This document shows, in pieces, positions 1,169-31,987 of a stretch of 49,336 bases of DNA. Each line of letters starts with the position of its first letter. The first letter of the stretch is position 1. The DNA is from Escherichia phage FCWL1, in the sequence record PP558327; one strand, 5' to 3'. The notes under the pieces were generated by a model, which made no database searches, was not told the DNA's origin, and worked only from the letters and a program-made list of their open reading frames with translations. The translations under genes were made by a program, and so were the position numbers.

Positions 1169-1205
1169 ACCCCATCGAAACGAGATACCAATCAGAGGAA
1201 TAACC

Positions 1206-1436
1206 ATGTCAATCGTCAAGAACCAGCAAGCCATCGATTCAACCAACAACAACCGCTTTGCTATTTTCATCACTCGCGACAACAAGCGTTTTGCGGTCAA
1301 GGTAGTACCGGGTGGATACAATACATACATGGAAGGTAACGGAAAATGGGTTCGGTGTGACAACCTCTCAAACTTCCTGGTCTGGAATGCAGAACTCCAG
1401 GGATTTGATGATATCAGCACTTTAATTGAGGAGTAA
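1206..1436 (+). CDS. hypothetical protein (76 aa)
   Basis: ORF with strong RBS (CAGAGGAAT) downstream of promoter cassette. Confidence 0.55.
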   Translation: MSIVKNQQAIDSTNNNRFAIFITRDNKRFAVKVVPGGYNTYMEGNGKWVRCDNLSNFLVWNAELQGFDDISTLIEE

Positions 1437-1441
1437 TAATC

Positions 1442-1669
1442 ATGCCACGTTACAGCAACCTAACTCAACTAACCCGCGTCAACGGGCACATGATCCCGGC
1501 TAAATCTACTCACTGCGCGAAAGGCGCAAAGCACGGATTATATTTCAAGTGGCGCGGCCAATGGAACTTCACAGCTGTGAATAATTTCTACATGCGAGTT
1601 CCAGGTGATGACCCGCAATCAGTAGTAGAAAACTCAATCGGTGACAACAAGATCGAGGTACTAAAATGA
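1442..1669 (+). CDS. hypothetical protein (75 aa)
   Basis: ORF tightly packed after 1206-1436; RBS GAGGAG upstream. Confidence 0.5.
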   Translation: MPRYSNLTQLTRVNGHMIPAKSTHCAKGAKHGLYFKWRGQWNFTAVNNFYMRVPGDDPQSVVENSIGDNKIEVLK

Positions 1670-1776
1670 ACTTTAATACAGTAGCGCTATGGTCTGCCGT
1701 CTGGTTCTTCTGCATGGGTCACGTCATGGTCGGCATCGTGGTAATGCTTCTCCTGCGTGCGGGGGCGTTCGAATGA
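1666..1776 (+). CDS. possible small hydrophobic peptide (36 aa, MNFNTVALWSAVWFFCMGHVMVGIVVMLLLRAGAFE)
   Basis: ATGA overlap with preceding stop; single predicted TM segment; below the 60-aa track threshold. Confidence 0.25.
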   Translation: MNFNTVALWSAVWFFCMGHVMVGIVVMLLLRAGAFE

Positions 1777-1946
1777 TGCGTATATTGATTTGCATGATGG
1801 CTGCTGTCGCCCTGACTATCCTGGTAGTGTCCGGCTGCGGCGAGGTCAAAGAGCGATGCCATGAAACCGGGAGCCAGGTTACTACTTTCGTGATGGTTGG
1901 CAACGTATTGCTACCAATCACATCAAATGAAATCACTTGCGAATAG
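1773..1946 (+). CDS. putative small lipoprotein (57 aa)
   Basis: N-terminus MMRILICMMAAVALTILVVSGC has signal-peptide character and a lipobox-like VSGC; overlaps the stop of the 1666 peptide. Confidence 0.35.
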   Translation: MMRILICMMAAVALTILVVSGCGEVKERCHETGSQVTTFVMVGNVLLPITSNEITCE

Positions 1947-1955
1947 GATGTTAAA

Positions 1956-2147
1956 ATGGCTGATTTTATGCACCAAATGATTGCAGTATTCAAATGTAGT
2001 GATGACCAGGAAGTTAAAGAGTGCTTTACCGTTGACAAGCCTTATAACGCATCGCTAACCAGCTTCGGGAACATCTCATTGCTTGATGATAATGGCGACC
2101 CCTGGATATTCGACGAAGACACCGATTGCTTCGAAATTAAAGAATAG
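1956..2147 (+). CDS. hypothetical acidic small protein (63 aa)
   Basis: ORF with upstream GGATG context; acidic C-terminus. Confidence 0.4.
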   Translation: MADFMHQMIAVFKCSDDQEVKECFTVDKPYNASLTSFGNISLLDDNGDPWIFDEDTDCFEIKE

Positions 2148-2187
2148 CACTTTTTGTTAAAAATAAATTCCGGGGTTGCGATATAGT
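2145..2187 (+). promoter_or_regulatory. promoter cassette (TAGCA-CTTTT-TGTTA, hairpin, TATAGT), first of a tandem pair
   Basis: Palindrome, 22-bp spacer with GGGGTT/AACCCC hairpin enclosing TATAGT; followed immediately by a second cassette. Confidence 0.5.
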
Positions 2188-2214
2188 AACCCCATCGACA
2201 ACGAACGAGGACGA

Positions 2215-2779: not shown

Positions 2780-2820
2780 GAACGAATTGTTAAAAGGGGA
2801 TTTGGCCTGACTGGTATAAT
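2778..2820 (+). promoter_or_regulatory. promoter cassette (half-palindrome CGAAT-TGTTA, hairpin, TATAAT)
   Basis: Right half-site TGTTA conserved, 22-bp spacer, GGGGAT/ATCCCC hairpin around TATAAT. Confidence 0.4.
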
Positions 2821-3506: not shown

Positions 3507-3546
3507 CACGAATTGCTAAACCTTCCGCAAGGCCATTTGATATAGT
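3504..3546 (+). promoter_or_regulatory. promoter cassette (TAGCA-CGAAT-TGCTA, hairpin, TATAGT)
   Basis: Perfect palindrome, 22-bp spacer with AAGGCC/GGCCTT hairpin, TATAGT, leader with CCAATCAGAGGAAT RBS. Confidence 0.55.
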
Positions 3547-3586
3547 GGCCTTATTGAAGCAGAGCGACCAATCAGAGGAATCGGCT

Positions 3587-3886
3587 ATGAAAATCAGATT
3601 AACCAGTAGCTACTTTAACCGTGAATCTTTCAATCAGTACATAATCACAGACGGAATGAATACAGGCATCGTCCTTGATGTATCCCACAACATTGGCGAC
3701 GTTATGTTTGTATCAGCAACTGAGCTTGCAAAGTACGCAAAGCCAGAACATCGCCACCTGGCAGAGCCGCACTTGAGCGATGGAAAGGTTACAGATTACG
3801 CATTCACCAAAGGTGAGCATGAAATCGTGAGATCTGGACCTTTCAGATTCTGGAACAAACTTAAATCAGGGGAGTTATTCAAATGA
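3587..3886 (+). CDS. hypothetical protein (99 aa)
   Basis: ATG at 3587 after RBS CAGAGGAAT; track start 3545 lies inside promoter hairpin. Confidence 0.5.
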   Translation: MKIRLTSSYFNRESFNQYIITDGMNTGIVLDVSHNIGDVMFVSATELAKYAKPEHRHLAEPHLSDGKVTDYAFTKGEHEIVRSGPFRFWNKLKSGELFK

Positions 3887-4805: not shown

Positions 4806-4953
4806 TTTTAACGGGGAATCGGATCTGAACGGTTCCCCTTTCTTTTGGAGAAAACACTATGCCAGACTTTTCTAACTGGAATAACGAGCCGCCATCATTT
4901 CAGGAGTTGCTATTTTGCCTCCTGGCCCTGACATTATCTCTTAAGGGTGTTTT

Positions 4954-5199: not shown

Positions 5200-5239
5200 G
5201 CCCTTCGTTGAGTTAAGCAACCAATCAGAGGAATAAATC

Positions 5240-5959: not shown

Positions 5960-6532
5960 ATGAAAACAGCTATCATTTTAAACGGCGCACCTGGAGCGGG
6001 AAAAGACACTATCGGATGCATCCTTGCTGACACTTACGATCACGTAGCCTTGCGCAGCTTCAAAGCGCCAATGTTTGAGATTGCCAGGGCAATCCTGGGT
6101 GAAGCTAACTACGAGTATTTCATGTTCTTGTATGAGGACCGTCGATATAAAGAAGAGCCAGCATCAATCCTGAACGGTAAAAGCCCGCGCCAGTTTATGA
6201 TCTGGATTAGCGAGGAAGTCATCAAGCCGCAGTTCGGAAATCGCTTCTTCGGTATGCGAGCGGAAAGCAAGGTGAAAGAGTCGCACTCCCTTTCGGTATT
6301 TACTGATGGTGGATTCAAAGACGAAATCTTGCAGATGATTGAAGGTGATATCCAGGTCAAGCTATGTCGAATACATCGCAACGGTTGCAGCTTTGATAAC
6401 GACAGCCGCGACTATATCTATCTTGACGACATGATCGGGGTTAACGGTTATCAGGAATGTGACTTCTTTTCTGTCGAAGGTCATCCAGAAATTACCGCTC
6501 AGCACATAGCCGCCACGTTCATCAATAAATAG
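5960..6532 (+). CDS. P-loop nucleotide kinase (dNMP kinase-like)
   Basis: Walker A GAPGAGKDT at N-terminus; NGKSP motif; 190 aa. Confidence 0.55.
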   Translation: MKTAIILNGAPGAGKDTIGCILADTYDHVALRSFKAPMFEIARAILGEANYEYFMFLYEDRRYKEEPASILNGKSPRQFMIWISEEVIKPQFGNRFFGMRAESKVKESHSLSVFTDGGFKDEILQMIEGDIQVKLCRIHRNGCSFDNDSRDYIYLDDMIGVNGYQECDFFSVEGHPEITAQHIAATFINK

Positions 6533-6742: not shown

Positions 6743-7098
6743 TTACGATTAACCTGTCAGAGAAGCAAGCTCGTGAAATCCTGGACACGATCGGCGACCA
6801 GTTACACATCAAGGGCGCTACCGCCGAACTTCTTAACCAGATCGAAAGGCAGCTTACCCCAGCATCAACGAATCAAGCTGAGTTCGCAGCATGGAAGAGT
6901 GAACGCATCTTGCCAAATATCATCAAGGCATGGAAGCGCAAGCATAAAAAAGAAATCAACGTTGAGGATTTGTTTACCGACGAATTAAGCCCTTCAAAGG
7001 TTGCTCAATATCAGTTGCGATACATGGAATCAGTTTGCAATCAGGTTTTAGGTGTTAATTTTCATTTTGGAGAGGTAAATAATGTTCGGATTAAGTGA
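6739..7098 (+). CDS. hypothetical protein (119 aa)
   Basis: ATGA overlap with upstream gene. Confidence 0.5.
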   Translation: MITINLSEKQAREILDTIGDQLHIKGATAELLNQIERQLTPASTNQAEFAAWKSERILPNIIKAWKRKHKKEINVEDLFTDELSPSKVAQYQLRYMESVCNQVLGVNFHFGEVNNVRIK

Positions 7099-7515: not shown

Positions 7516-7677
7516 CCTACGTCCCTGAGCGGTGATAGTATTAATCCCGTAGACAAACTAGGCGCAATGAAGCGCAACGCGTGAGACGATTCTCACACTT
7601 CCAGCTAACAAGCTCGGTTGCATAGTGGTTAAGCAACGCCGCAGACCCGTAAGCGGCAACAATTCAAGAGGATTGCA

Positions 7678-7842: not shown

Positions 7843-8008
7843 TTAATTATTCGAAAGATGGGGATGTTTTGCCAGTCGTGCAAACAATCTTTCGAAACAG
7901 AATTATCTGCAACCAGTCAGGCAGAAGCCATCACGAAAGCAAAAAAACTTTCCGGCGCTAACCTTGACACTCACAAAATAAATATTGAATTAATCAAGGA
8001 GATTTAAC

Positions 8009-8883: not shown

Positions 8884-10452
8884 ATGATTCAATGGGAAGA
8901 ACTCGACGCAACTCAGAAGTTGGCGATCAAAAAAATGAGCGAGGCCAATTTCGAAAAAATGATTCGGATCTGGTTTCAGCTTATGCAGGCTCAGCAGTTC
9001 CAGCCTAACTGGCATCACCTTTACCTATGTCACGAAGTGGAGGAAATTATTGCAGGCCGACGCGGTAACACTATCTTTAACGTCACGCCAGGCTCCGGTA
9101 AAACTGAGGTGTTCTCAATTCACCTTCCGGTGTACGCAATGCTCAAGTGTAAAAAGGTGAGAAACCTTAACGTGTCGTTTGCCGACAGCTTAGTTAAGCG
9201 TAACAGTAAGCGTGTCCGTGAGATTATCAGCAGCAACGAATTTCAAGAGCTATGGCCTTGCAAGTTCGGTACATCGAAAGACGAGGAGATGCAGGTTCTT
9301 AATGAAGACGGAAAGGTTTGGTTTGAGCTAATCTCCGCAGCGGCTGGTGGTCGTATTACTGGTTCGCGTGGTGGGTACATGATGCCAGGATTCTCAGGTA
9401 TGGTAATGCTCGACGATATCGACAAGCCTGATGATATGTTCTCAAAGGTTAAGCGTGAGCGTACGCACATGCTATTGAAAAACACCATTCGATCCCGTCG
9501 TATGCATAACGAAACGCCAATTATCGCAATTCAGCAGCGACTACATGCTCAGGATTCAACCTGGTTCATGATGAATGGCGGGATGGGTATTGAGTTTGAC
9601 CAAATCTCAATCCCGGCGCTGGTGACGGAAGAATACGGAAAGACACTTCCTGATTGGTTGCAGCCTTACTTTGAGCGTGATGTTTTATCGTCTGAGTATG
9701 TAGAATTGGATGGCGTTAAGCATTACTCTTTTTGGCCCAGCAAGGAAAGCGTTCACGACCTGTTAGCCTTGCGAGAAGCTGATCAGTACACCTTTGACTC
9801 TCAGTATCAGCAGAAGCCGATCGCGCTTGGTGGCTCCGTGTTTAACTCGGAGTGGTGGACCTATTACGGCAGCAGCCTTGACGCTGACGAGCCAGATCCT
9901 GGTAAATATGATTACCGTTTTATCACAGCAGATACCGCTCAGAAGACGGGTGAGCTAAACGACTACACGGTCTTTTGTTTATGGGGTAAGAAAAACGATA
10001 AGGTTTACTTTATCGACGGCATTCGCGGCAAGTGGGAAGCGCCTGATATGGAGAAACAATTTACCGCCTTTGTGAATCAGGCATGGAGGCACAATAAATC
10101 AATGGGCGTGCTTCGCAAAATCTACGTGGAAGATAAAGCGAGCGGAACGGGCTTGATTCAGAACTTAAGGAAAAAGACCCCGATCTCAATTACACCATTG
10201 CAACGTAACAAAGATAAAGTTACCCGAGCGATGGATGCGCAGCCAGTTATTAAGGCCGGGCGTGTAGTTCTTCCAGAAGAGCACCCTATGCTTGCGGAAA
10301 TCATCGCAGAGCATAGCGCTTTCACATATGATGACACACATCCGCATGATGACATTGTCGATAACTTCATGGATGCGGCGAACATTGAATTGCTGACTAT
10401 TGACGATCCTATTGAGCGAATGAAGCGACTTGCCGGGATGGTTAAGCGGTAA
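8884..10452 (+). CDS. terminase large subunit
   Basis: 522 aa; ATPase Walker A-like VTPGSGKTE, Walker B MVMLDDIDKPDD; C-terminal nuclease-like acidic residues; position before portal. Confidence 0.85.
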   Translation: MIQWEELDATQKLAIKKMSEANFEKMIRIWFQLMQAQQFQPNWHHLYLCHEVEEIIAGRRGNTIFNVTPGSGKTEVFSIHLPVYAMLKCKKVRNLNVSFADSLVKRNSKRVREIISSNEFQELWPCKFGTSKDEEMQVLNEDGKVWFELISAAAGGRITGSRGGYMMPGFSGMVMLDDIDKPDDMFSKVKRERTHMLLKNTIRSRRMHNETPIIAIQQRLHAQDSTWFMMNGGMGIEFDQISIPALVTEEYGKTLPDWLQPYFERDVLSSEYVELDGVKHYSFWPSKESVHDLLALREADQYTFDSQYQQKPIALGGSVFNSEWWTYYGSSLDADEPDPGKYDYRFITADTAQKTGELNDYTVFCLWGKKNDKVYFIDGIRGKWEAPDMEKQFTAFVNQAWRHNKSMGVLRKIYVEDKASGTGLIQNLRKKTPISITPLQRNKDKVTRAMDAQPVIKAGRVVLPEEHPMLAEIIAEHSAFTYDDTHPHDDIVDNFMDAANIELLTIDDPIERMKRLAGMVKR

Positions 10453-10506: not shown

Positions 10507-11790
10507 ATGAAAATTGTTAAACATGATGGATATAACGATATCTTTAACGGCGGCGCGGACGGTTCACCAAAGCCATTTTTTATGTCAGACGCATCATATC
10601 ACGTAGGATCTTTCTATAACGATAACGCAACAGCGAAGCGAATTGTAGATGTGATCCCGGAAGAAATGGTGACGGCTGGATTTAAAATTTCAGGCGTTAA
10701 GGATGAAAAAGAGTTCAAATCTCTGTGGGATAGTTACAAAATTGATCCTAGCTTGGTTGATGCTCTTTGCTGGGCGCGCTTATACGGTGGGGCGGCTATT
10801 GTAGCAATCATTAATGACAACAGAATGCTAACCAGTCCAGTTAAGCCTGGGGCTAAACTTGAAGGTGTGCGTGTTTACGATAGGTTCGCAATTACAATCG
10901 AAAAAAGAGTAACCAATGCGCGATCGCCTCGCTATGGTGAGCCTGAGATCTATAAGGTGTCACCTGGTGACAATATTCAACCTTACTTAATCCACCACAC
11001 AAGAATTTTCATTGCTGATGGTGAGAGAGTTACCCCTCAGATGAGGAAGCAGAATCAGGGGTGGGGTGCTTCAGTTTTGAATAAGTCACTGATTGATGCA
11101 ATCTGCGACTACGACTATTGCGAATCACTTGCGACTCAGATCCTTCGGCGTAAGCAACAGGCGGTATGGAAGGTCAAAGGTCTTGCCGAAATGTGCGATG
11201 ATGACGATGCTCAGTATGCGGCGCGTCTGCGACTTGCTCAGGTTGATGATAACTCCGGCGTAGGCCGCGCGATCGGTATCGATGCTGAGACGGAAGAATA
11301 CGATGTTCTAAACTCTGATATCAGCGGAGTACCTGAGTTCTTATCAAGCAAGATGGATCGTATTGTTTCCCTTTCCGGGATTCATGAGATTATCATCAAA
11401 AATAAGAACGTAGGCGGCGTATCAGCGAGCCAAAACACGGCGCTTGAGACTTTCTATAAGTTGGTAGATCGTAAGCGTGAGGAAGATTACAGGCCGCTTC
11501 TTGAGTTCTTGCTGCCGTTCATTGTTGACGAGCAAGAGTGGTCGATCGAGTTCGAGCCTTTATCTGTTCCGAGCAAGAAAGAGGAATCAGAGATCACGAA
11601 GAATAACGTTGAGTCGGTTACGAAAGCTATCACTGAGCAAATCATCGATCTGGAAGAGGCTCGCGATACGTTGCGCTCTATCGCCCCTGAGTTTAAGCTA
11701 AAGGACGGTAATAACATCAACATTCGCGAACCGGAAGAGCCAACCGAACCGGAGCCGGGATTAGGGGAGAAGTTAGAAGATGAAAATTAA
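10507..11790 (+). CDS. portal protein
   Basis: 427 aa, immediately downstream of terminase; acidic C-terminus; RBS GGAGGA. Confidence 0.8.
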   Translation: MKIVKHDGYNDIFNGGADGSPKPFFMSDASYHVGSFYNDNATAKRIVDVIPEEMVTAGFKISGVKDEKEFKSLWDSYKIDPSLVDALCWARLYGGAAIVAIINDNRMLTSPVKPGAKLEGVRVYDRFAITIEKRVTNARSPRYGEPEIYKVSPGDNIQPYLIHHTRIFIADGERVTPQMRKQNQGWGASVLNKSLIDAICDYDYCESLATQILRRKQQAVWKVKGLAEMCDDDDAQYAARLRLAQVDDNSGVGRAIGIDAETEEYDVLNSDISGVPEFLSSKMDRIVSLSGIHEIIIKNKNVGGVSASQNTALETFYKLVDRKREEDYRPLLEFLLPFIVDEQEWSIEFEPLSVPSKKEESEITKNNVESVTKAITEQIIDLEEARDTLRSIAPEFKLKDGNNINIREPEEPTEPEPGLGEKLEDEN

Positions 11791-16362: not shown

Positions 16363-16368
16363 TCATCA

Positions 16369-18772: not shown

Positions 18773-18794
18773 TCAACCAATCAGGAGAAACATC

Positions 18795-19467: not shown

Positions 19468-22341
19468 ATGGTTGATAAGGTAGCAGGTCTGTCGCTTGAC
19501 GTTGATGTGTCAACAGTGCAGCGCGCCGTCAAGTCACTGAAAGAGTTTTCAAAGGCCAACGACCAGGCCGCTGATTCTATGGGTTCTTTAATCAATGAGT
19601 CAGAGGTTGCAAAACAGAAGGCCAAAGAACACGCTGAACAACTCAGGCGTCAGAGAAAAGAGTATGAGGCCGTGGAGAAGGCAATCGATCCTACAGTATC
19701 AAAAATGGAAAGGTTGAAGATTGCATCTCAGCAGCTTGATAAACTCTGGCAGCAGGGAGTCGTTCCAGATGAGACATTTTTCCGTTTGGGTGAAATGCTG
19801 GATCTGCAAAACGCAAAACTTGCTCTCAGCCGGGCTATGCTTACGGAAGAAGGTCAGGCGGCATTGCAGGAAGCGAAAGCAAAAGAGCAGGCGGCAGCAC
19901 GAAGCAAGGCGTTCATGGATGCCCTGAATGGTCAAGTTAACGCGATCGGCAAGACTCATGCTGAATTGATGGAACTGAAAGCGGCTGAGCTTGGTTTATC
20001 GAAAGAAGCAGCACCACTAATCGCAAAACTTAAAGATCAAGGCCGGGCTATGAATGCAGCAGGTATTAGCGCCGGGGAATACAGGCAGGCAATGCGAATG
20101 CTTCCTGCACAGATTACCGACGTCGTTACATCTCTTGCATCCGGCATGCCAGTTTGGATGGTTGCCATCCAGCAAGGCGGTCAAATCAAGGACTCGTTCG
20201 GCGGGATCAGTAATACGTTTAAAGTGTTGCTGAGTTATATTAATCCAGTCACAGCAGGGGTTGGCGTTCTCGTTGGCTCGTTAGGTCTTCTGGCGAAAGC
20301 TGGTTATGACTCTTACAAGTCAATAACTGATATTCAGAATGCGCTTATTGAGACTGGCGGTTATGCAGGTGTTACGGCTGAAGAGCTTGATTCAGTGTCT
20401 AAAAAGATCGCACAGACAAGCAACTCAACCATTGGGAGTATTCGCGATATTGTAACGGAGTTGGCGAGTTCTGGTAAGTACACCCGCGAGCAGATCCAGA
20501 ACATCACTAAGGCTACCGCAGAGTGGTCAGCGTCAACAGGAAAATCAGCAAGCCAAATTATTTCTGAGTTCGACAAAATCGCAAGCGATCCGGTAAAAGG
20601 CCTGAAGAAGTTAAACGAGCAATATAATTTCCTTGAAAAAGGGCAACTTACCTATATCGATACATTAAGCCGGACGAAAGGAGAAACTGAGGCAGTATCA
20701 GAGGCTACCAAACTATTCGCAGACGTAATGGAAAAGCGAATGAAGTCGATCGCGGATAACGCTACTCCTCTGGAAAAGATGTGGAGCGATATTAAACAAT
20801 GGGCTTCGGACGCGTGGGGATGGGTTGGTGATCATACACTCGGGGCGCTAAACCTGATTGTCGACGTTGTTCAGGGTACAGTGATTCAGGTTAAAATGAT
20901 TCTTGCGAAGGGTGATGAGTACATCTCAAACTTTATCGCCTCAGCCATAAAGGCAACTCAGTCACTACCTGGAATGAGTGATTTCGGCGCTGATGTGCTG
21001 AAGGAGCAGGAGAACATCGTAAAAAGTTCTCGCGACAACTACGACCAGTTGGCTTCAGAGCTTGATGCTATTAACGCTCGCGTAGAAAAAGGCGAGATGG
21101 GATACGTTGAAGCGATGAAGCAGCGTCGAACTCTTGAAAAGCAGTACAGTGAGGAAACTAGGGAGGCAATAAGGAAAGAAGCAGAAGAGATCGAGAAGCG
21201 AAACCGAGAAAGAAATAAGCAGTCGAAAATTGTACGCTCACCGACAGAGCAATTCGACAAGGAGTTAATTTCACTCAAGGCTCAACTTAAGGTATTGCAG
21301 GAGCATAAGGAGATCGGTCAAAAACTTTCCGCGCAGAGAAAGGCGCTGTTTACTACCGAGGCTACGATTGCTGTTCTTCGTGAAGCCAGCTCTAAGCGTC
21401 AGTTGTCTGCGGAAGAAAAAGCGTTGCTGGCAAGTCAGGAGAGAGTTATTGAGCTTGCGAAACAGAAGGCCGAGATTGGCGATCAGATTGTTAAGCAACA
21501 ACAGTTGAATGATCTTACCGATAAATCTCTGAAGTTTGTCAATGAGATGACGGCAGCTACAGAACAGCTAAACGCGTCTCGAGGGATGAGCACCCGAGAA
21601 ATGGAAAGGCAAGCTGAGTTGGCTAAGATCACTACTGATTATATTAATGCAGGTGGCAGCGAAGGAGATGAAAAACTCCAGAACATGATCAAGGCACAAA
21701 ATGATTACTATGCTGCGGAAGATGCCAAGCGTTCTGACTGGTTAGCAGGTGCTGAAAGTGCATTTGCAGATTACGGCGATTCTGCAATGGATATGTACGG
21801 CAATGTGTATGATATCGCGTCAAGTTCACTTAACGGAATGAGTGACATGATGACCCAATTCCTGACTACAGGTAAGGCAAATTTTGAGGACTTTGCGAAA
21901 AACATCATTAGCATGATTATTAAGATGATTGCTCAAATGGTAATCTTCAATACGATCTCAGGCATGATGGGCGGTAAGACGTGGAGCTTTGCTGGAGGGG
22001 TGTCGCCTGGTGCTTCTGCGGTATCACAGGCAACTCCTACGCCTGCCGTCTCTGGTTTTAGGTCTTTATCTTCAGGCGTCGCTGTTACCTCGCTTGCTGC
22101 CGCTGCGGGTAGTGTTGCAACATCTGGATTTAACGCATCTAAATCCGCACCGAAGGCAGTGAACCAATCAGCAGGCGGGACGGTCGTTGATGTTAGGGGT
22201 ATGGAGGTTAAAGTTGACAACGGTTCAGATCCGAGAGGAATTTCTCAGGGCGTAGAAATGATGTTCAAAAAAATGATTCGAGAGTCTTGTTCACAGGGCG
22301 GAGAGGTTTACAATTACATTCAGGAAAAAACAGGAGGCTAA
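19468..22341 (+). CDS. tail tape measure protein
   Basis: 957 aa, coiled-coil-rich, hydrophobic central segments, Gly/Ala-rich C-terminus; downstream of G/GT. Confidence 0.85.
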
Positions 22342-23559: not shown

Positions 23560-24290
23560 TTAGTGCAAAAATTAAACTTGAAATTATGACTCACGCTCAA
23601 GAAGAATATCCTCGCGAATGCTGTGGGGTAGTCACCCAAAAGGGCCGCGTACAAAAATACCATCGCGTTGATAATGTACACCGCGATCCCGAGAATCATT
23701 TCATGATGGATGCTGTACAATACGCTTGCATTGAGGACGATGCGGAATCAACAACAATAGCAATTGTTCACAGCCACACAGGAGACGGGGCTACAACTCT
23801 ACCAAGCGCTCACGATACGTGCATGTGCAACGAGATGGAAGTTACCTGGATTATTGTTAGCGTGCCGGAAGGGGATATGCGATTTGTGAAGCCGGAGAAA
23901 TTGCCTCTGATTGGTCGTCCGTGGTCATTAGGATCATTCGACTGTTACGGTCTTGTTATGGCGTGGCACAAAGAGCACGGCGTAGAATTGCGCGATCGCC
24001 GATTGAATTTTGAATGGTGGAAACCTGAGTACGGAATTAATCTCTATCAGGATTATTACAAGCAGGATGGCTTCGTTGAGATTCCAGATCAGAATAATCC
24101 GTCATTCGGTGATATGGTAATCATGCAGATAGGGCAAAACGTTCCGGTATGGAACCATGCAGGGATTTACCTGGGAGATAATCAGATCTTGCATCATGCC
24201 TTCGGCAAGCTATCTCGTCGTGATATTTATTCCGGATGGTATCAGGATCATACTGTTTTAATCGTTCGCCATAAGGATCTTAAATTATGA
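23556..24290 (+). CDS. tail assembly protein (lambda K-like; JAB/MPN + NlpC/P60 domains)
   Basis: HSHTGDG (JAMM-like) motif and Cys/His peptidase-like C-terminal region; ATGA overlap with L-like gene. Confidence 0.7.
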   Translation: MISAKIKLEIMTHAQEEYPRECCGVVTQKGRVQKYHRVDNVHRDPENHFMMDAVQYACIEDDAESTTIAIVHSHTGDGATTLPSAHDTCMCNEMEVTWIIVSVPEGDMRFVKPEKLPLIGRPWSLGSFDCYGLVMAWHKEHGVELRDRRLNFEWWKPEYGINLYQDYYKQDGFVEIPDQNNPSFGDMVIMQIGQNVPVWNHAGIYLGDNQILHHAFGKLSRRDIYSGWYQDHTVLIVRHKDLKL

Positions 24291-24963: not shown

Positions 24964-27900
24964 ATGATTCAAAAAGTGATAAGTGGATCTAAAGGCGGCT
25001 CGCCTAAGCCTCATAATCCAGTTGAGATGGAAGACAATCTAATCTCAATCAACAAAATCAAGATCCTGTTAGCTGTATCTGATGGTGAAATTGACGAAAC
25101 ATTCAGCCTGAAGCAGTTGATGTTTAACTCAGTCCCGGTGCAAAACGAGGATGGATCGTTCAACTTCGAAGGGGTAAAGGCTGAGTTCAGGCCGGGAACT
25201 CAGACGCAGGAATACATCAAGGGCATGGAGGATAGTTCCAGCGAGGTAACTGTAAATCGTGAGGTTACTACCGATAACCCATACACGATCTCAGTGACCA
25301 ATAAAACACTATCGGCAATACGCATCAAAATGTTCATGCCTCGCGGCGTACGAATTGAAAGTAACGGTGATAAAAATGGCGTAAGAGTTGAGTATGAGGT
25401 GCAACAAGCTGTTGATGGCGGTTCGTTTGAGACTGTTCTTACTGACGTAATTGAAGGCAAAACAATGTCAGGTTACGACAGAAGTCGACGTGTAAACCTG
25501 CCTAGCTTTAACAACCAGGTAATATTCAGAGTTGTTCGAAAGACTCCAGACTCTAACGACTCTAACGTTGTTGATGCGATCCAGGTAAAGAGCTATGCCG
25601 AGGTGATTGATGCCAAATTCCGTTACCCTCTGACAGGTCTTCTTTTCGTCGAGTTCGACTCGAAGATGTTCCCAAACCAGTTACCTACGATCTCAATTCG
25701 TAAGCGCTGGAAGATTGTAAGCGTTCCGTCGAACTACGACCCAGAATCGCGAACATACAACGGCAATTGGGATGGCACTTTCAAAAAAGCATGGACGAAC
25801 AATCCGGCGTGGGTTCTTTATGACCTGATGATTAATCAGCGTTACGGCTTGGATCAGAAAGAGCTTGGTATCGCTGTCGATAAATGGGCGCTCTACGAGG
25901 CTGCGCAATATTGCGATCAGATGGTTCCTGATGGGAAGGGCGGGACGGAACCTCGATACCTTTGCGACGTGATAATCCAGTCTCAGACTGACGCTTACAA
26001 GGTTATTCGAGATATTTGCTCAATCTTTCGAGGTATGAGCTTTTGGAATGGCGAAAGCATTTCGGTAATCATCGATAGGCCGCGTGAGCCTGCGTACATC
26101 TTCACTAACGACAACGTGGTTAATGGTGACTTCTCCTACACGTTTGCAAGCGAAAAGAGCATGTACACGACGTGTAATGTGATGTTTGACGACGAGCAAA
26201 ACATGTATCAGCAGGACGTTGAGCCAGTATTCGATCGTGAGGCTACTCTACGGTTCGGGAACAACGTAACGAGCATTACAGCGATCGGCTGCACACGTCG
26301 AAGCGAGGCCAACCGACGCGGGAGATGGATTCTGAAAACTAACCTCCGCAGCACTACGGTAAACTTCGCTACCGGACTTGAGGGTATGATTCCGACAATC
26401 GGAGATGTTGTGGCAATAGCTGATAACTTCTGGTCAAGTAACTTGACGATGAACCTATCAGGGCGCTTGCTCGAAGTATCCGGTAGTCAGATTTTCTTGC
26501 CGCTCCGGGTGGATGCACGCGCGGGTGACTTTATTATCGTAAATAAGCCAGATGGCAAGCCCGTGAAGCGCACAATATCAAGTGTTAGTGCGGATGGTAA
26601 GACTATAGAGGTTAACATTGGCTTTGGCTTTCCTGTGAAGCCTAACACGGTATTCGCTATCGACCGCACCGACATTGCGTTACAGCAGTACGTCGTGACA
26701 AAAATCGATAAGGGCGATGATGATGAGGAATTTACCTACAAAATAACGGCGGTGGAGTACGATCCTAACAAGTACGATGAGATTGATTACGGAGTTAATA
26801 TCGACGACCGACCGACGAGCATCGTTGAACCAGATCAGATCCCTAGACCGGAAAACGTGCAAGTGTCCTCAGAGTCACGAATCGTCCAGGGGATGAGCGT
26901 AGAAACGATGATTGTTAGCTGGGATAAAGTGCCGTACGCAGTTTTCTATGACGTCCAGTGGCGAAAGGATAACGGCAACTGGCAAAATGTACCGCAGACA
27001 GCAAACAAAGAGGTATACGTTGAAGGTATTTACGCTGGCAACTATCAGGTTCGCGTTCGCTCCGTAGCTGGTTCCGGTACGACTTCAGGATGGTCAAATG
27101 TCGTAGCTGCGACGCTGACGGGCAAACAAGGTGAGCCGGGTGGACCGATTAACCTTACAGCTACGGATGATGTTGTTTTTGGTATCCGTACAAAATGGGG
27201 GTTCTCTGATGGTTCTGGAGATACGGCCTATACAGAGTTGCAACAGTCACCAGATGGAACAGTGGATAACGCAAGTTTGCTTTCTTTGATTCCGTACCCG
27301 CAGCATGAGTATTATCACTCACCGATGCCTGGAGGGAATATTGTTTGGTATCGTGTAAGGACGGTTGATAGGATCGGTAACGTGTCTCAGTGGACTGATT
27401 TTGTCAGAGGTATGGCATCAACAAACGTTGACGATATCATTGGGGAGATTTCTGTCGATATCGAAAACTCGCCGGGTTACGAGTGGCTTGTTGATAACGC
27501 AACCGACAACGCGGCGCAGAACGCAGCTAACGCAGAGGCAGCAATAGAAAACGCGCTCGCCAATGACAAAGACGCGATCTACATGAAGAAGGAGAACGGA
27601 AAACGAAAAGCTGAGTACACGAAATCACTGAAACTTATTGCTGATGAGACGCAGGCGCGAGTGACGGCGATCGAGCAATTGAAGGCAAGTTTTGGCGATC
27701 AGATTAGCGCTAGCAACAGCGAATTGCGTGAAGTTATCGCAACTGAGACTGGAGCGCTATCGCGTGAAATTGACCAACTCAGGGCAGAGATTGGTGATGA
27801 TATCCAGGCAAGTTTGACCGATATCAGAGAGGCTATAGCAAACGAGACTGAGGCGAGAACGCAAGCTGACTTGTCGTTAAGCGCGAGGCTTGGGAATAAT

Positions 27901-28383
27901 GAGGCAGCACTTTCTCAAAAACTTGATTCGTGGAGCAATGCAGATTCGACTGGTGCAATGTACGGCGTCAAGCTCGGTCTGAAGTATAACGGCCAAGAAT
28001 ACAGTGCAGGCATGGCTATGTCTCTGATTGGTTCCGGAGCTGCGGTTAAGGCGCAGATTTTGTTTGAGGCATCACGATTTGCCATCATGAATGGAATGAA
28101 TGGTCAGACTCAGTACCCATTCGTTGTTGAGAATGGCCAGGTTATTTTAAGTAGCGCGATTATCAAGAACGGATTCATCACGAATGCGATGATTGGTAAT
28201 GTTATTCAATCGAATAACTATGTCGTTAACAAGGCTGGCTGGATACTTGACAAGGGTGGAACATTAGAAAACTACGGAAGTGACGCTGAGGGTGCAATGA
28301 AGCAAACTAATACCACAATATCTGTTAGGGATGCGAGTGGTCGCCTGAGGGTTCAGATTGGCAGGTTGACTGGTTCATGGTAA
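24964..28383 (+). CDS. central tail fibre / host specificity protein (lambda J-like)
   Basis: 1139 aa; conserved J-family segment NPAWVLYDLMINQRYGLDQ...; fibronectin-like repeats; coiled-coil C-terminal region. Confidence 0.85.
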   Translation: MIQKVISGSKGGSPKPHNPVEMEDNLISINKIKILLAVSDGEIDETFSLKQLMFNSVPVQNEDGSFNFEGVKAEFRPGTQTQEYIKGMEDSSSEVTVNREVTTDNPYTISVTNKTLSAIRIKMFMPRGVRIESNGDKNGVRVEYEVQQAVDGGSFETVLTDVIEGKTMSGYDRSRRVNLPSFNNQVIFRVVRKTPDSNDSNVVDAIQVKSYAEVIDAKFRYPLTGLLFVEFDSKMFPNQLPTISIRKRWKIVSVPSNYDPESRTYNGNWDGTFKKAWTNNPAWVLYDLMINQRYGLDQKELGIAVDKWALYEAAQYCDQMVPDGKGGTEPRYLCDVIIQSQTDAYKVIRDICSIFRGMSFWNGESISVIIDRPREPAYIFTNDNVVNGDFSYTFASEKSMYTTCNVMFDDEQNMYQQDVEPVFDREATLRFGNNVTSITAIGCTRRSEANRRGRWILKTNLRSTTVNFATGLEGMIPTIGDVVAIADNFWSSNLTMNLSGRLLEVSGSQIFLPLRVDARAGDFIIVNKPDGKPVKRTISSVSADGKTIEVNIGFGFPVKPNTVFAIDRTDIALQQYVVTKIDKGDDDEEFTYKITAVEYDPNKYDEIDYGVNIDDRPTSIVEPDQIPRPENVQVSSESRIVQGMSVETMIVSWDKVPYAVFYDVQWRKDNGNWQNVPQTANKEVYVEGIYAGNYQVRVRSVAGSGTTSGWSNVVAATLTGKQGEPGGPINLTATDDVVFGIRTKWGFSDGSGDTAYTELQQSPDGTVDNASLLSLIPYPQHEYYHSPMPGGNIVWYRVRTVDRIGNVSQWTDFVRGMASTNVDDIIGEISVDIENSPGYEWLVDNATDNAAQNAANAEAAIENALANDKDAIYMKKENGKRKAEYTKSLKLIADETQARVTAIEQLKASFGDQISASNSELREVIATETGALSREIDQLRAEIGDDIQASLTDIREAIANETEARTQADLSLSARLGNNEAALSQKLDSWSNADSTGAMYGVKLGLKYNGQEYSAGMAMSLIGSGAAVKAQILFEASRFAIMNGMNGQTQYPFVVENGQVILSSAIIKNGFITNAMIGNVIQSNNYVVNKAGWILDKGGTLENYGSDAEGAMKQTNTTISVRDASGRLRVQIGRLTGSW

Positions 28384-29423: not shown

Positions 29424-29446
29424 GCCCCTTTCGGGGCTTTTCTTTT
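29422..29446. terminator. terminator hairpin (AAGCCCC-TTTC-GGGGCTT) between convergent genes
   Basis: GC stem with T-tract downstream on + strand; sits between tail module end and antisense lipoprotein gene. Confidence 0.6.
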
Positions 29447-29672
29447 ACATCGAGCAATCGTGAGACTTGAAGTTATTCTCTGATACGTAATGGAATGAGA
29501 ATGGATACCCAGCACGTAACAGCATCTCATCACCGCGCATCTTTGATCCAAAAACGGAAACCGAGTACTCTGCGTCACCTGATTCATAAATCGCAGTACA
29601 AGTGCGCTCAGGCATCGATGAGCAACCAGTCAGGATGAATGCCGCAGCAATAATGGTGATTAATTTTTTCAT
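29445..29672 (-). CDS. outer-membrane lipoprotein, Cor/Llp-like superinfection-exclusion candidate
   Basis: Only minus-strand gene; N-terminus MKKLITIIAAAFILTGCSS is a lipoprotein signal with lipobox LTGC; GAGGA SD; own sigma70-like promoter; adjacent to receptor-binding tail genes. Confidence 0.5.
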   Translation of the reverse strand: MKKLITIIAAAFILTGCSSMPERTCTAIYESGDAEYSVSVFGSKMRGDEMLLRAGYPFSFHYVSENNFKSHDCSM

Positions 29673-29701
29673 TTGCATGTCCTCGTCGTTAGTGTGATTG
29701 C

Positions 29702-29730
29702 ATTGTATGTCGCATTTACTTTTATTGCAA
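29702..29730 (-). promoter_or_regulatory. sigma70-like promoter for antisense lipoprotein gene (TTGCAA - 17 bp - TACAAT on minus strand)
   Basis: -35/-10 hexamers with 17-bp spacer read on minus strand, about 25 nt upstream of start codon. Confidence 0.45.
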
Positions 29731-29749
29731 TAGCGCAATTACAATTTTT

Positions 29750-30170
29750 TTTCGTGTAACGGGTGTCTATTTTTGTAACTGGAGATGGTGTTACAAAATC
29801 TACCCAATCCGAACGCAGGTAGATATGATAAAAACTCTATATAATATATATAGATAGATAATATTTAATTTTAGCTTTATATATATAATTATTGTTGTGT
29901 AACAGTTGTCTATCGTGTAACTGGTGATTTGATTGATTCGTCAAATTTCTATCATATATGTTCAAAATTTAATCAATATGGATTCTACTTGTAGCTATCC
30001 CTGTATTTCTAAGAAAAAGCGGTTACAAGTATTACACAGTAGACATCACATAAAAATAGACTTAAGCCATTGATTCCGTTAATGCTGGTTGTAACTTGAG
30101 CGATATAGACACGCTATTACACACCAATTACATGTATCCGATTGACTAAACGCTGTTAATGGCTATAATG
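29750..30170. repeat. AT-rich control region with flanking ~28-bp direct repeats (GTGTAAC-N3-TGTCTAT-N-GTAACTGG), candidate origin/early promoter region
   Basis: Direct repeats at ~29753-29782 and ~29896-29924 bracket an AT core containing CTATATAATATATATAG (identical to 225-241); TTACACAC/ATAGACA motifs. Confidence 0.5.
30142..30169 (+). promoter_or_regulatory. sigma70-like promoter (TTGACT - 16 bp - TATAAT) for recombination operon
   Basis: Near-consensus hexamers about 30 nt upstream of exonuclease gene. Confidence 0.5.
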
Positions 30171-30200
30171 GATTCATCGTAAACGAGGGAGATAAACGCA

Positions 30201-31265
30201 ATGTTCCAGGTGTTCACATCAAGTCAGCTTTCTAATGACGAGTATCATAGCAACGAAGGTTGGGCGGCAGAGTATGTAAGCGGTTCTAGCCTTGCAGAAA
30301 TTTATCAGACTTGCCCGGCTAACTGGAGATTCAAGAAGAATGAGACAACGAAGGCGCTGGAGTTTGGTACTCAGTCGCATACCAACTTTGAGAGCCGAGA
30401 TCTGTTTACTGCAACGTATGCACGTTGTCCGGCTCCGTCAGAGTTCAAGGATCTGATTACGTCACAAGCCGCACTGGCTGCAAAATTAAAATCTTTCGGC
30501 CTGAAAGGTACATCCGGTAAGCAGTACCCGGACCTCATCAAGATGATGGTTGATTGCGGTGAAGAGCTAAACGTCCAATATCTGATCGAGTTGATTGCGG
30601 AAGCAGAGGCGCGCTCTGAAGGAAAGAAATTGGTTGACGCTGACAAATACGACGCTTGCATGAAGATGAGAGCAATCCTTGAACAAAATCCTGATCACGA
30701 AGCGTGCATCAACAGTGAAACGGCGCAGCGTGAGATTTCAATCTTCGGTGAGATATCCGGCGTCAAGGTTAAGGTTCGACTTGACCATCTGGACTACAAA
30801 GAGAATGTTCCAGGTCGTGTCCTGACTGGTTATGATGAGAATGGAGATCCGGTATTCGAAGATGTTATTTTCCCTGAAGCACTGATTATCACTGACTTCA
30901 AAACAACAATGAGCGCCAACCCGTTAGAGTTCCCGAGACTGGCATACAATCACGGGTATTATCTGAAAATGGCCTTGCAGCATGATCTGCTACGACGCGC
31001 AATCCAGGCTGGCGCTTTTGAAGGCAACTTCCCGGAAGATATCCCGATCGTAGTTCGATTGCTGGCTCAGGAGAAAAAAGAGCCTTACATCGCACTTGCT
31101 TACCGTATGACTATGGAGCAAATCAGGATCGGTCGTAGCCAGTATGTTAGCGTAGTCCACACTTACAAGGCTTGCTCTGAAATGGATGTTTGGCCTGGGT
31201 ACGCTGGCGACGCAAGCGAGATTGAACTTGAAACGCCATCATGGGTGCGTTACCAAAATAAGTAA
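30201..31265 (+). CDS. PD-(D/E)XK exonuclease (RecE/lambda Exo-like recombination exonuclease)
   Basis: Motifs RLDHLDY...IITDFKTT (D...D/ExK); first gene of operon with ERF and SSB. Confidence 0.6.
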   Translation: MFQVFTSSQLSNDEYHSNEGWAAEYVSGSSLAEIYQTCPANWRFKKNETTKALEFGTQSHTNFESRDLFTATYARCPAPSEFKDLITSQAALAAKLKSFGLKGTSGKQYPDLIKMMVDCGEELNVQYLIELIAEAEARSEGKKLVDADKYDACMKMRAILEQNPDHEACINSETAQREISIFGEISGVKVKVRLDHLDYKENVPGRVLTGYDENGDPVFEDVIFPEALIITDFKTTMSANPLEFPRLAYNHGYYLKMALQHDLLRRAIQAGAFEGNFPEDIPIVVRLLAQEKKEPYIALAYRMTMEQIRIGRSQYVSVVHTYKACSEMDVWPGYAGDASEIELETPSWVRYQNK

Positions 31266-31339
31266 ACGGCACAAATAGCTAAACAAATAATTAATGAGGT
31301 GTTATAATGCACCTCATACACCAATCAGGAGAAGTTAAG

Positions 31340-31987
31340 ATGCAATTATCACCAGAAACAAACGAAATTCTTCCCGCACTGTTCAATGCTCGCAACAAAT
31401 TTGCTAAAGCAAAGAAGGACGCAAAAAACAATCACCTGAAAAATTCATACGCAACCCTTGATGCAATGATGGCGGCCGTTAGCCCGGCGCTCACCGATAA
31501 CGATATTATGATCCTGCAATCAATGCTGGACACCAGCACGGAAACAACCTTCCATCTTGAAACGATGCTGATTCACAAATCCGGGCAATGGGCCAAGTTC
31601 TTCATGATGATGCCTATTGCAAAGCGCGATCCTCAAGGTGTAGGCTCAGCGATGACGTATGCGCGGCGTTACTCATTAGCCGCAGCGCTGGGGATTAGCC
31701 AGAGTGATGACGATGCTCAGCTTGCAGTGAAATCTGTCAAGGACTGGAAAAAAGAACTTGATGCGTGTGAAGATATCGAATCACTGAAAGAGGTATGGGC
31801 TAACGCTTACCGCCAGACGGACACGGCAAGCAAGTCAATCATTCAGGATCACTACAACGCACTTAAGGCTAAGTTTGAGATCGGTAAAGCTCGTGGTATT
31901 CGCCCGGCGCAACCGGAGCAGAAAAAACAGGTTGAAGCAACGAGCGCGAAGCCTGTACAATCTCAATCAATCACCAACTTCGAATAA
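31340..31987 (+). CDS. erf: ERF-family single-strand annealing protein
   Basis: Conserved ERF signature ...GSAMTYARRYSLAAALGI...; RBS AGGAGAAG. Confidence 0.7.
   Translation: MQLSPETNEILPALFNARNKFAKAKKDAKNNHLKNSYATLDAMMAAVSPALTDNDIMILQSMLDTSTETTFHLETMLIHKSGQWAKFFMMMPIAKRDPQGVGSAMTYARRYSLAAALGISQSDDDAQLAVKSVKDWKKELDACEDIESLKEVWANAYRQTDTASKSIIQDHYNALKAKFEIGKARGIRPAQPEQKKQVEATSAKPVQSQSITNFE

Follow-up and report, generated by a model that had tools for sequence, protein, structure and literature searches.

An evenly spaced bipartite DNA word on both strands of T1-like phage genomes, with some copies in ribosome-binding sites

Five genes in the window (the whole 49,336-nucleotide stretch of Escherichia phage FCWL1 DNA that was analysed, record PP558327) are preceded on the + strand by ACCAATCAG, which is followed each time by AGGAA or GAGAA, with the ATG 10-11 nt past the motif (Table 1). 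An earlier note had described a recurrent ribosome-binding module ahead of these genes (about 1190, 3570, 5218, 18779 and 31322), and all five instances hold. The window is phiD2-2 with coding sequences (CDSs) artificially flipped; the natural genome has seven such copies, and the two extra ones, at 45440(-) and a one-mismatch copy at 48284-48292(-), owe their separation from their genes solely to the flipping of those CDSs in the window. The terminal AG of the motif opens the Shine-Dalgarno sequence (AGGAG or AGAGG) in five to seven genes, an arrangement that holds in several subfamilies. Because of this overlap and the fixed distance to the ATG, the motif belongs to those five to seven ribosome-binding sites.

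The claimed recurrence above plain expectation is borne out against shuffled sequence: CCAATCAG occurs 16 times in the whole window versus 1.43 expected, a count reached in none of 100 shuffles, and the 14-mer with up to two mismatches occurs 13 times versus 0.37. Nine further exact copies of ACCAATCAG lie within genes, mostly antisense. CCAATCAG represents one version of a bipartite word in the DNA, ACC-NN-TCAG with purines after it. This word, ACC-N2-TCAG(R), has 52 copies in the window where 3.8 are expected (about 13-fold enrichment), divided roughly equally between the strands; 42 are inside genes, in every reading frame, and about half of all copies are antisense to genes. Unbiased scans rank it first among dyads, every fixed base is required for enrichment, only the 2-nt gap is enriched, with N1 and N3 spacers at background, and a purine is at +1 in 42 of the 52 sites. 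No earlier description of the word was found in the literature searched.

Table 1. Copies of the ACC-NN-TCAG word and related sites in the window
Sequence	Positions	Strand	Context
ACCAATCAG	387..395	+	CDS 378-893, sense, frame 0
ACCAATCAG	1187..1195	+	RBS-type; 10 nt to ATG 1206 (76-aa ORF); kept in T1
ACCAGTCAG	2807..2815	-	intergenic, overlaps -10-like box CTGACTGGTATAAT; kept in T1
ACCAATCAG	3567..3575	+	RBS-type; 11 nt to ATG 3587; kept in T1
ACCTTTCAG	3838..3846	+	CDS 3587-3886, sense, frame 2
ACCGTTCAG	4825..4833	-	intergenic, loop of terminator-like hairpin 4813-4838
ACCAATCAG	5220..5228	+	RBS-type; 11 nt to ATG 5240 (polynucleotide kinase); kept in T1
ACCGTTCAG	6170..6178	-	CDS 5960-6532, antisense, frame 0; kept in T1
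ACCGCTCAG	6494..6502	+	CDS 5960-6532, sense, frame 0; kept in T1
ACCTGTCAG	6752..6760	+	CDS 6739-7098, sense, frame 1
ACCGCTCAG	7525..7533	-	intergenic; kept in T1
ACCAGTCAG	7912..7920	+	CDS 7822-8007, sense
ACCAATCAG	9650..9658	-	large terminase gene, antisense; kept in Tempevirinae
ACCGCTCAG	9934..9942	+	large terminase gene, sense
ACCCCTCAG	11032..11040	+	portal gene, sense; absent in T1
ACCAATCAG	12101..12109	-	CDS 11780-12541, antisense
ACCGCTCAG	13240..13248	+	CDS 12544-13656, sense; absent in T1
ACCATTCAG	13255..13263	+	CDS 12544-13656, sense; 15 nt after site 13240..13248
ACCGCTCAG	14423..14431	-	CDS 14207-14974, antisense
ACCGCTCAG	15168..15176	+	major head gene, sense
ACCGCTCAG	16658..16666	-	CDS 16226-16816, antisense; kept in Tempevirinae
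ACCAGTCAG	16701..16709	+	CDS 16226-16816, sense
ACCTTTCAG	18628..18636	-	major tail gene, antisense; kept in Tempevirinae
ACCAATCAG	18776..18784	+	RBS-type; 10 nt to ATG 18795 (tail chaperone-like gene); also in Webervirus
ACCATTCAG	19924..19932	-	tape-measure gene, antisense
ACCAGTCAG	21734..21742	-	tape-measure gene, antisense; kept in Tempevirinae
ACCAATCAG	22163..22171	+	tape-measure gene, sense
ACCAATCAG	23907..23915	-	minor tail gene 23556-24290, antisense
ACCTGTCAG	25630..25638	-	tail gene 24964-28383, antisense; kept in Tempevirinae
ACCTATCAG	26453..26461	+	tail gene 24964-28383, sense; kept in Tempevirinae
ACCAATCAG	28024..28032	-	tail gene 24964-28383, antisense; absent in T1
ACCAGTCAG	29625..29633	+	cor-like region, unannotated in phiD2-2
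ACCTTTCAG	30501..30509	-	exonuclease VIII gene, antisense; kept in Tempevirinae
ACCAGTCAG	30822..30830	-	exonuclease VIII gene, antisense
ACCAATCAG	31320..31328	+	RBS-type; 11 nt to ATG 31340 (Erf-like recombinase)
ACCAGTCAG	32200..32208	-	SSB-like gene 32034-32447, antisense
ACCGCTCAG	34953..34961	+	primase gene, sense; flipped block, opposite strand in nature
ACCAATCAG	36180..36188	-	SNF2-type helicase gene, antisense; kept in Tempevirinae
ACCTTTCAG	36765..36773	+	SNF2-type helicase gene, sense
ACCAATCAG	37859..37867	-	VRR-NUC gene, antisense
ACCAGTCAG	37939..37947	+	VRR-NUC gene, sense; kept in Tempevirinae
ACCAATCAG	39671..39679	-	CDS 39442-39843, antisense
ACCGATCAG	40171..40179	+	exonuclease gene 39922-41073, sense; absent in T1
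ACCGTTCAG	41275..41283	-	CDS 41137-41313, antisense
ACCGCTCAG	42216..42224	-	CDS 42132-42536, antisense
ACCCATCAG	42758..42766	-	flipped block 42549-42892
ACCAGTCAG	43826..43834	+	DUF3987 helicase gene, sense; flipped block
ACCCATCAG	44924..44932	-	DUF3987 helicase gene, antisense; flipped block
ACCAATCAG	45440..45448	-	natural RBS-type; gene now flipped at 45012-45428
ACCCGTCAG	47467..47475	+	ORF 47367-47726
AGCAATCAG	48284..48292	-	RBS-type, 1 mismatch; phiD2-2 has ACCAATCAG before GP18 (flipped CDS ending 48271)
ACCTATCAG	48439..48447	-	intergenic, adjoins 21-nt repeat at 48451
ACCAGTCAG	49057..49065	-	CDS 48724-49194, antisense; relocated block

Spacing was measured in natural related genomes, and its statistics are weaker outside Tunavirus. 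T1-like phages carry about one site per 0.95 kb with both strands pooled; the coefficient of variation (CV) of the gaps is 0.56-0.65 versus 0.97 for random placement, the largest gap is 2057 bp versus about 4200 by chance, and none of 300 control words is as regular. Each strand has its own near-periodic series with a period of about 1.8 kb (per-strand CV of 0.33-0.43 for the primary series), and the dominant series, which reads 5'-CTGANNGGT-3' on the sense strand of the late genes, has more sites, greater regularity and deeper conservation than the other. The phase between the two series is skewed, and close opposed pairs of sites are present. Sites are uniform within genes and their number scales with gene length (about 1 per kb), in a pattern independent of gene boundaries and of the known 21-nt T1 repeat. 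When the RBS-type copies are left out, holes of 5-7 kb open in the lattice; we read these copies as lattice members whose terminal AG and preferred purine flank double as Shine-Dalgarno sequence. The even two-strand layout points to a role at the DNA level, probably in replication, rather than in translation.

The motif is common to Drexlerviridae (T1-like phages), with 47-54 copies in Tunavirus, 29-35 in Tempevirinae and 19-20 in Webervirus and Braunvirinae; lambda, E. coli, Chaseviridae and other controls have 2-12, and no such excess is seen in lambda, in T7-like and other controls, or in E. coli DNA. Sites are retained in T1 in 42 of 46 cases against a background of 63% (P=2e-5), those at 11032, 13240, 28024 and 40171 having no T1 counterpart, and across subfamilies in 10 of 19 against 9% (P=2e-6); the site at 23907..23915(-) has an orthologous copy in all subfamilies sampled. 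The primary series is the better conserved (8/12 versus 2/9 for the other), and re-creation of lost sites nearby was not visible in a comparison of low power. This positional conservation suggests that individual sites are under purifying selection.

Our leading explanation, held tentatively, is that the word is a DNA-level coverage signal, most likely marking where the zinc-ribbon primase and MCM-like helicase of the phage start or are loaded. Its reader, acting on DNA, would be a DNA-transaction machine of the phage, most likely the replisome, for which each strand must offer a site in every 1-2 kb. The preferred start or loading signal would be 5'-(Y)YCTG-ANN-GGT-3' on the template strand. 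Initiation would take place at CTG, the trinucleotide that E. coli DnaG uses, and copying of the pyrimidines upstream of it would yield a primer rich in purines. Okazaki fragments would in that case begin roughly every 1.8 kb, as dictated by the lattice, and close opposed pairs might be start points for both leading strands. The phage primase has a zinc ribbon (PF08273) and is of the T7-gp4/P4-alpha type, the model of the helicase is MCM-like and has a winged-helix topology at its C-terminus, and T1-like phages lack a DNA polymerase (PMC11447400). Counting against priming, neither T7 primase sites nor a Vibrio phage whose primase is 29% identical displays a lattice, and simple lagging-strand priming would not lead one to expect the skewed inter-strand phase; nor, in the low-power comparison above, were lost sites seen to reappear close by.

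The statistics would agree just as well with a coverage signal for a different machine, and it is possible, if somewhat doubtful, that the lattice serves another DNA-tracking or DNA-binding factor, as a Chi-like self signal, a polar roadblock, or the site of an architectural or packaging protein. As a Chi-like signal, the word would attenuate a phage helicase-nuclease (the SNF2/ResIII helicase with VRR-NUC, or exonucleases) during degradation of host DNA. An over-represented, oriented word in both orientations with dense, even coverage has the statistics of Chi, KOPS or USS; the phage has genes for an SNF2/ResIII helicase, a VRR-NUC nuclease and a Cro-like HTH protein; E. coli DNA has the word at background frequency only; and close opposed pairs would be apt for a signal on either side of protected segments. 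What lets T1-like phages destroy host DNA yet leave their own intact is still being asked (PMC11447400), which also favours such a reader. Against it, the word bears no relation to E. coli Chi, itself nearly absent from these genomes, and no orientation switch of the motif was found along the genome. Nor do we know of a precedent for a phage-encoded Chi-like system.

Non-adaptive molecular drive, in which biased recombination, repair or gene conversion spreads a word whose sites have no function, has reportedly been proposed for bacterial uptake sequences, and it appears unlikely here. The signature is that of USS/DUS (even spacing at about 1 per kb in both orientations, and favoured frames that encode common tripeptides, with 28 of the 42 in-gene copies in frame 0 as Leu-X-Gly or Thr-X-Gln), and the phages encode their own recombination system. 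However, positions conserved across subfamilies far above background suggest selection on individual sites, one orientation is dominant, and drive would still require a sequence-specific machine.

The earlier note saw in the conserved CCAATCA a possible translational enhancer or protein/RNA binding site, and of this the membership in five to seven ribosome-binding sites stands but specificity for such sites does not, since 45 of the 52 copies lie elsewhere, half of them antisense. As the main role of the word, an enhancer or an mRNA site for a regulatory protein or RNA is improbable. The constant distance to the ATG and the Shine-Dalgarno overlap recur in Webervirus and Hanrivervirus, and the distance from the -10-like box to the motif varies from 8 to 21 nt, so that it is the start codon that fixes the motif's position. 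However, none of the 35 copies in phage A123 is at a ribosome-binding site, in-gene copies are not consistently followed by a start codon, complementarity of CCAAUCA to 16S rRNA was looked for and not found, no Rfam family was found for the motif, and the even, two-strand, in-gene distribution, which has no translational rationale, makes a purely translational or mRNA-binding role insufficient.

A compositional or codon-usage artefact is scarcely credible: CTG, GGT, ACC and CAG are preferred codons, of which the frame-0 copies are composed (as Leu-X-Gly or Thr-X-Gln), and the codon-aware expectation for in-gene copies (about 9.6) is above the dinucleotide expectation, but such an origin is already contradicted by synonymous-codon shuffling (42 copies reached in 0/300 shuffles), by the out-of-frame copies (14 versus 4.1, each frame and strand class being enriched 3-6 fold), by lambda and E. 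coli, which share the translation system and have 8-10 copies per 50 kb, and by the spacer, spacing and conservation results.

Several known systems resemble the lattice in part. Stoperators of mycobacteriophage L5, a temperate phage that has a repressor, are intergenic and oriented with transcription; the motif is likewise an asymmetric short site with tens of copies per phage genome, but is mostly in-gene, in both orientations, and in virulent phages. L5 stoperators have also been the comparison for the 21-nt Drexlerviridae intergenic repeat aaATAGCACnnnTTGnTAAAA (PMC11447400). The genomes with the motif also contain that repeat, and four RBS-type copies follow it at a distance of about 45 nt, but the two are distinct elements: of 23 promoter-like repeat modules only 4 include the motif, and 45 of the 52 copies are far from any repeat. 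Like Chi (GCTGGTGG) and KOPS, the motif is an oligomer that exceeds its expected frequency, depends on orientation and would be recognised by a translocating enzyme; it differs from them in sequence, in its interleaved orientations without replichore-type skew, and in having no known reader. The USS of Haemophilus and DUS of Neisseria are 9-10-mers at about 1 per kb, even, in both orientations, and mostly in genes in favoured frames, all of which the motif shares, together with an occasional role in intergenic signals; unlike them, it has a dominant orientation and is found in a virulent phage, without uptake machinery, rather than in a competent bacterium. Known zinc-ribbon primases read 3-5 contiguous nucleotides (5'-(G/T)(G/T)GTC-3' for T7 gp4, 5'-CTG-3' for E. 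coli DnaG), whereas the motif specifies seven of nine positions around a 2-nt gap and, unlike T7 primase sites, is enriched 13-fold and evenly spaced. Like primase sites, it is a short, strand-specific word on template DNA, its complement begins with CTG with pyrimidines before it, the per-strand spacing fits Okazaki-fragment size, and the phage has a primase with the same zinc-ribbon domain.

The earlier note described a recurrent ribosome-binding module before the ATG of at least five genes, commoner than expected. All five copies of ACCAATCAG were found with the ATG 10-11 nt downstream, and the enrichment check gave 16 occurrences of CCAATCAG where 1.4 are expected. Another nine exact copies of ACCAATCAG are intragenic, seven in antisense orientation. 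In a k-mer survey the 9-mers with the greatest excess proved to be one family (ACCAATCAG, 15 copies; ACCAGTCAG, 10; ACCGCTCAG, 9), represented here by the bipartite word, or motif, ACC-N2-TCAG. This word occurs 52 times in the window against 3.8 expected (13-fold), with 25 and 27 copies on the two strands, and in unbiased scans of gapped motifs it ranks first, above the known promoter-like repeat. Counts fall to background when any of the seven fixed bases is changed, and they are likewise at background for spacers of 0, 1 and 3-6 nt between ACC and TCAG. The flanks are also constrained: a purine occupies +1 in 42 of 52 copies, the 3' side is purine-rich, and C is avoided at -3. As a separate observation, the one-nucleotide-spacer form ACC-N1-TCAG is modestly above shuffle expectation in total (12 versus 4.0, shuffle maximum 11) and is strongly strand-biased, with 0 copies on the plus and 12 on the minus strand of the window, and 3 and 9 in T1.

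Because 28 of the 42 in-gene copies lie in frame 0, as CTG-ANN-GGT or ACC-NNT-CAG, and are built from preferred codons throughout, synonymous codons were permuted within each gene. The in-gene expectation is then about 9.6, against the 42 observed, and none of 300 permutations reaches the observed total. All frame and strand classes are 3-6 fold enriched, out-of-frame copies included (14 versus 4.1), and the motif occurs 8 times in lambda and 10 times in a 50-kb segment of E. coli. An artefact of codon usage or composition was rejected on the strength of the synonymous and codon-order shuffles, the per-frame tests, the spacer controls and the lambda and E. coli counts. Pairing at the RNA level, between sense ACC..CAG and CUGA..GGU copies, was rejected on the ground that the two members of a neighbouring pair differ in the central dinucleotide.

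The strand and spacing of the sites were analyzed on the natural records phiD2-2, SH2, T1 and IME18, and the window was used for counts and coordinates only, since its layout is not natural. With 99.5-100% identity to Escherichia phage phiD2-2 (OR861627), the window represents the genome of a T1-like coliphage (Drexlerviridae, Tunavirus), rotated so that position 7632 of that record comes first. All CDSs annotated on the minus strand of phiD2-2 are reverse-complemented in place in the window, with exact CDS boundaries and with the spacers in their original orientation, and two small blocks are relocated (see table). As a result, the promoter-like modules and ribosome-binding sites (RBSs) of the flipped genes end up on the wrong strand, 3' of the genes they serve. 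This layout looks like an artefact of data representation rather than biology. A cor-like superinfection-exclusion ORF that lacks an annotation in phiD2-2, though SH2, T1 and IME18 have it annotated, keeps its orientation in the window, a point in favour of the flipping having followed the phiD2-2 annotation.

Spacing of the motif is markedly even. Gaps between the 54 sites of phiD2-2 vary with a CV of 0.60, where random placement gives 0.97, and the widest is 2057 bp, where random placement averages ~4200; SH2, T1 and IME18 show the same even spacing. No control word matched this regularity: across 300 equally abundant words from the same genome the CV averaged 1.00 and was never below 0.71. 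Each strand carries a separate near-periodic series, with a mean gap of 1.8-2.0 kb and a CV of 0.33-0.66. The primary series, which reads CTGANNGGT on the top strand when the terminase gene is placed there, is the more regular (CV 0.33-0.43, with gaps mostly of 1.2-2.5 kb, versus 0.54-0.66 for the secondary series on the opposite strand), outnumbers the secondary series in 8 of 8 genomes, and is the better conserved out to Tempevirinae (8/12 versus 2/9). Sites also alternate between strands (40 runs versus 27 expected), but this follows from there being two regular series: rotating the series of one strand reproduces the alternation, and only a phase skew remains as a separate phenomenon. That skew has the same direction in 7 of 7 genomes, with close pairs about 0.6 kb apart. 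Sites are spread uniformly within genes, and longer genes have proportionally more of them (about 1 per kb), which excludes both a rule of one site per gene and a preferred in-gene position.

The motif is found across the family: genomes of Tunavirus have 47-54 copies, those of Tempevirinae 29-35, those of Webervirus and Braunvirinae 19-20, and genomes from outside it 2-12. Density is smoothly lower with terminase divergence in 25 further IMG/VR loci, 8-15 fold enrichment of the core word ACCA-N-TCAG persists down to Webervirus, and no substitute motif was found in the low-count subfamilies. Individual positions are also retained. T1 keeps 42 of 46 alignable window sites, compared with 63% for comparable words (P=2e-5), and 10 of 19 sites are kept between Tunavirus and Tempevirinae against a background of 9% (P=2e-6). 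The feature underlying the ribosome-binding module is thus a conserved lattice of a DNA word across the family, of which no prior description, either as CCAATCAG or as ACC-N2-TCAG, was found in the full-text literature searched; neither form is mentioned in PMC11447400.

How far, then, does translation account for the word? The earlier note had suggested that CCAATCA, 5' of the Shine-Dalgarno sequence (AGGAG or AGAGG), is a translational enhancer or a protein/RNA binding site. The placement itself stands, and the description of the module was correct, in that the first two bases of the Shine-Dalgarno sequence are the last two of the motif. In the window five sense-strand copies (plus two that the flipping has displaced) occupy a fixed position 10-11 nt before ATG, the natural genome has the motif, Shine-Dalgarno and ATG arrangement at seven genes, and T1, Webervirus and Hanrivervirus show the same motif-start codon arrangement. 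From motif to start codon the distance is constant, whereas from the motif to the -10-like box upstream it ranges over 8-21 nt. The suggested function fares less well, as 45 of the 52 copies are elsewhere than in mRNA 5' leaders, 22 of them antisense in genes; a translational reading covers at most a seventh of the copies. An epsilon-type enhancer that base-pairs with 16S rRNA beyond the anti-Shine-Dalgarno was rejected (best match 7/8 including G-U pairs, at nt 249-256), as was a known RNA element, with 0 Rfam matches at gathering score across the whole window. The RBS-type copies keep the normal lattice distance to their same-strand neighbours, and without them holes of 5-7 kb appear in the series. 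They may be dual-use placements, at points where a purine flank would be needed anyway.

Some of the RBS-type copies have an upstream module that starts with the 21-nt repeat aaATAGCACnnnTTGnTAAAA. This repeat, with a core that is the near-palindrome TAGCA-N5-TGCTA, is known from TLS, T1 and Rtp; PMC11447400 counts its function among the open questions. The motif is not a constant part of it, being carried by only 4 of 23 modules. Some 22 nt separate the TTGnTA of the repeat from the -10-like box, more than a canonical sigma-70 promoter allows, and the modules are not called by a consensus promoter scan. Inverted repeats of 6-10 bp, with a stem sequence that varies between copies, accompany some 15 of the 23 modules and fall into two classes: either the loop holds the -10-like box (TATAGT, TAGAAT or TAAAGT), or a GC-rich hairpin lies just 5' of TATAGT, some of the latter being annotated as terminators in T1. 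A second recurrent start-region module, CCTTTTTTATTGGAGAAATCA...ATG, precedes late genes; it looks like the T-tract of a terminator joined to a Shine-Dalgarno sequence. Words containing GATC are also over-represented in the window (CGATCGC, 26 versus 8.6 expected; TAGGATC, 14 versus 2.6), which fits the Dam methylase encoded by the phage and the reported richness of TLS in GATC.

Positions in the window of the recurrent elements, rearranged blocks and genes discussed in the text
Feature	Position	Strand	Remarks
RBS-type copies of ACCAATCAG	1187, 3567, 5220, 18776, 31320	+	followed by AGGAA or GAGAA; ATG 10-11 nt past the motif
Additional natural RBS-type copies	45440; 48284-48292 (one mismatch)	-	separated from their own genes by flipping
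21-nt Drexlerviridae repeat ATAGCACnnnTTGnTAAA	e.g. 1124, 2144, 3503, 5156, 35544, 38053, 39076, 41064, 42595, 48451	+	23 copies in all, both strands
21-nt Drexlerviridae repeat	e.g. 120, 15011, 18773, 45008, 45508, 46027, 47143, 47373	-	
Inverted repeats (examples)	1141-1178, 3520-3557, 5173-5210, 39093-39130, 42612-42649; 45454-45491 (-)		positions are those of 38-nt stretches downstream of 21-nt repeats
Second start-region module, CCTTTTTTATTGGAGAAATCA...ATG	4836-4872, 10487-10507, 14184-14220, 16052-16088, 28406-28442		before late genes
Rearranged blocks	894-1127, 32476-33981, 34082-35002, 35079-35531, 42549-48271 (many blocks), 48287-49194		relocated: GP16 to 894-1127; GP20-21 and the GP19 upstream region to 48287-49194
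cor-like ORF	29445-29738	-	unflipped
Primase	34082-35002		PF08273

A distribution that is two-stranded, frame-independent, even and positionally conserved argues for a reader that acts on DNA and needs a site every 1-2 kb per strand. T1-like phages lack a DNA polymerase (PMC11447400). The primase of the window has a T7-gp4/P4-alpha zinc-ribbon domain (PF08273, E=8.5e-16), and a SNF2/ResIII helicase and a VRR-NUC nuclease are encoded as well. In T7, this zinc-ribbon domain reads the template sequence. The predicted model of the DUF3987 helicase is confident (pLDDT 89) and MCM-like, with a C-terminal winged-helix topology; among solved structures, no hits to the sequences of the helicase, primase and Cro-like protein were found, and searching by fold turned up no more than a general MCM-like match.

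Read on the complementary strand, the motif opens with CTG, the trinucleotide at which E. coli DnaG starts. A zinc-ribbon primase might recognize 5'-TTCTGATTGGT-3' on the template, with CTG as the starting point, and the pyrimidines before CTG would template a purine-rich primer. The sites are on both strands, with a per-strand period that matches the size of Okazaki fragments. The CTG start, the upstream pyrimidines and this period together favour programmed priming or loading sites as the putative role of the lattice. In a stronger and rather doubtful form of the proposal, the lattice would be the cis-acting code for T1-type replication: the primase, the MCM-like helicase and the host polymerase would start only at the 7-of-9-nt signal, and Okazaki-fragment starts, perhaps along with dispersed origins, would be hard-wired at about 54 positions. 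Close opposed pairs could form many such origins, and the same code might let the phage machinery distinguish its own DNA from that of the host.

Several observations weaken the priming idea. Known primases, to our knowledge, read shorter words (sites of 3-5 contiguous nt with a cryptic 3' base, versus a conserved word that spans 7 of 9 nt with a gap). The primase sites of T7 itself, taken as a positive control, form no lattice, and none accompanies the distantly homologous primase of a Vibrio phage. The phase skew between strands is not predicted by simple lagging-strand priming, and re-creation of lost sites nearby was not detected, a test of low power whose negative outcome also tells against priming. 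Vibrio phage K199, which is unrelated, has an over-represented 8-mer of its own, CGTGTCAT (16 copies versus 1 expected), which is not a lattice but looks operator- or iteron-like, clustered in the two intergenic regions 9526-9856 and 46860-47219.

T1 is one of the classical coliphages. PMC11447400 still lists its replication, its breakdown of host DNA and its intergenic repeats as open questions, and a conserved, even and orientation-aware word throughout the genome is a concrete handle on all three, as it offers a defined sequence at defined positions that can be removed by synonymous recoding. Should the motif program priming or self-recognition, it would represent a new viral mode of organizing replication or of marking its own DNA, and recoding in the engineering of therapeutic T1-like phages could destroy the signal unnoticed.

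Programmed priming is favoured, but the motif statistics are nearly as compatible with a different DNA-binding role or with a phage nuclease that takes the word as a Chi-like signal of self. Like Chi, the motif is an over-represented (13-fold), oriented oligomer with one orientation dominant; the host Chi, GCTGGTGG, is nevertheless a different sequence and is present only 0-1 times per strand. The motif also resembles the uptake sequences USS and DUS in its density of about 1 per kb, its occurrence in both orientations, its even spacing and its favoured reading frames, but its carrier is phiD2-2, a virulent coliphage, and not a naturally competent bacterium with a sequence-specific uptake receptor.
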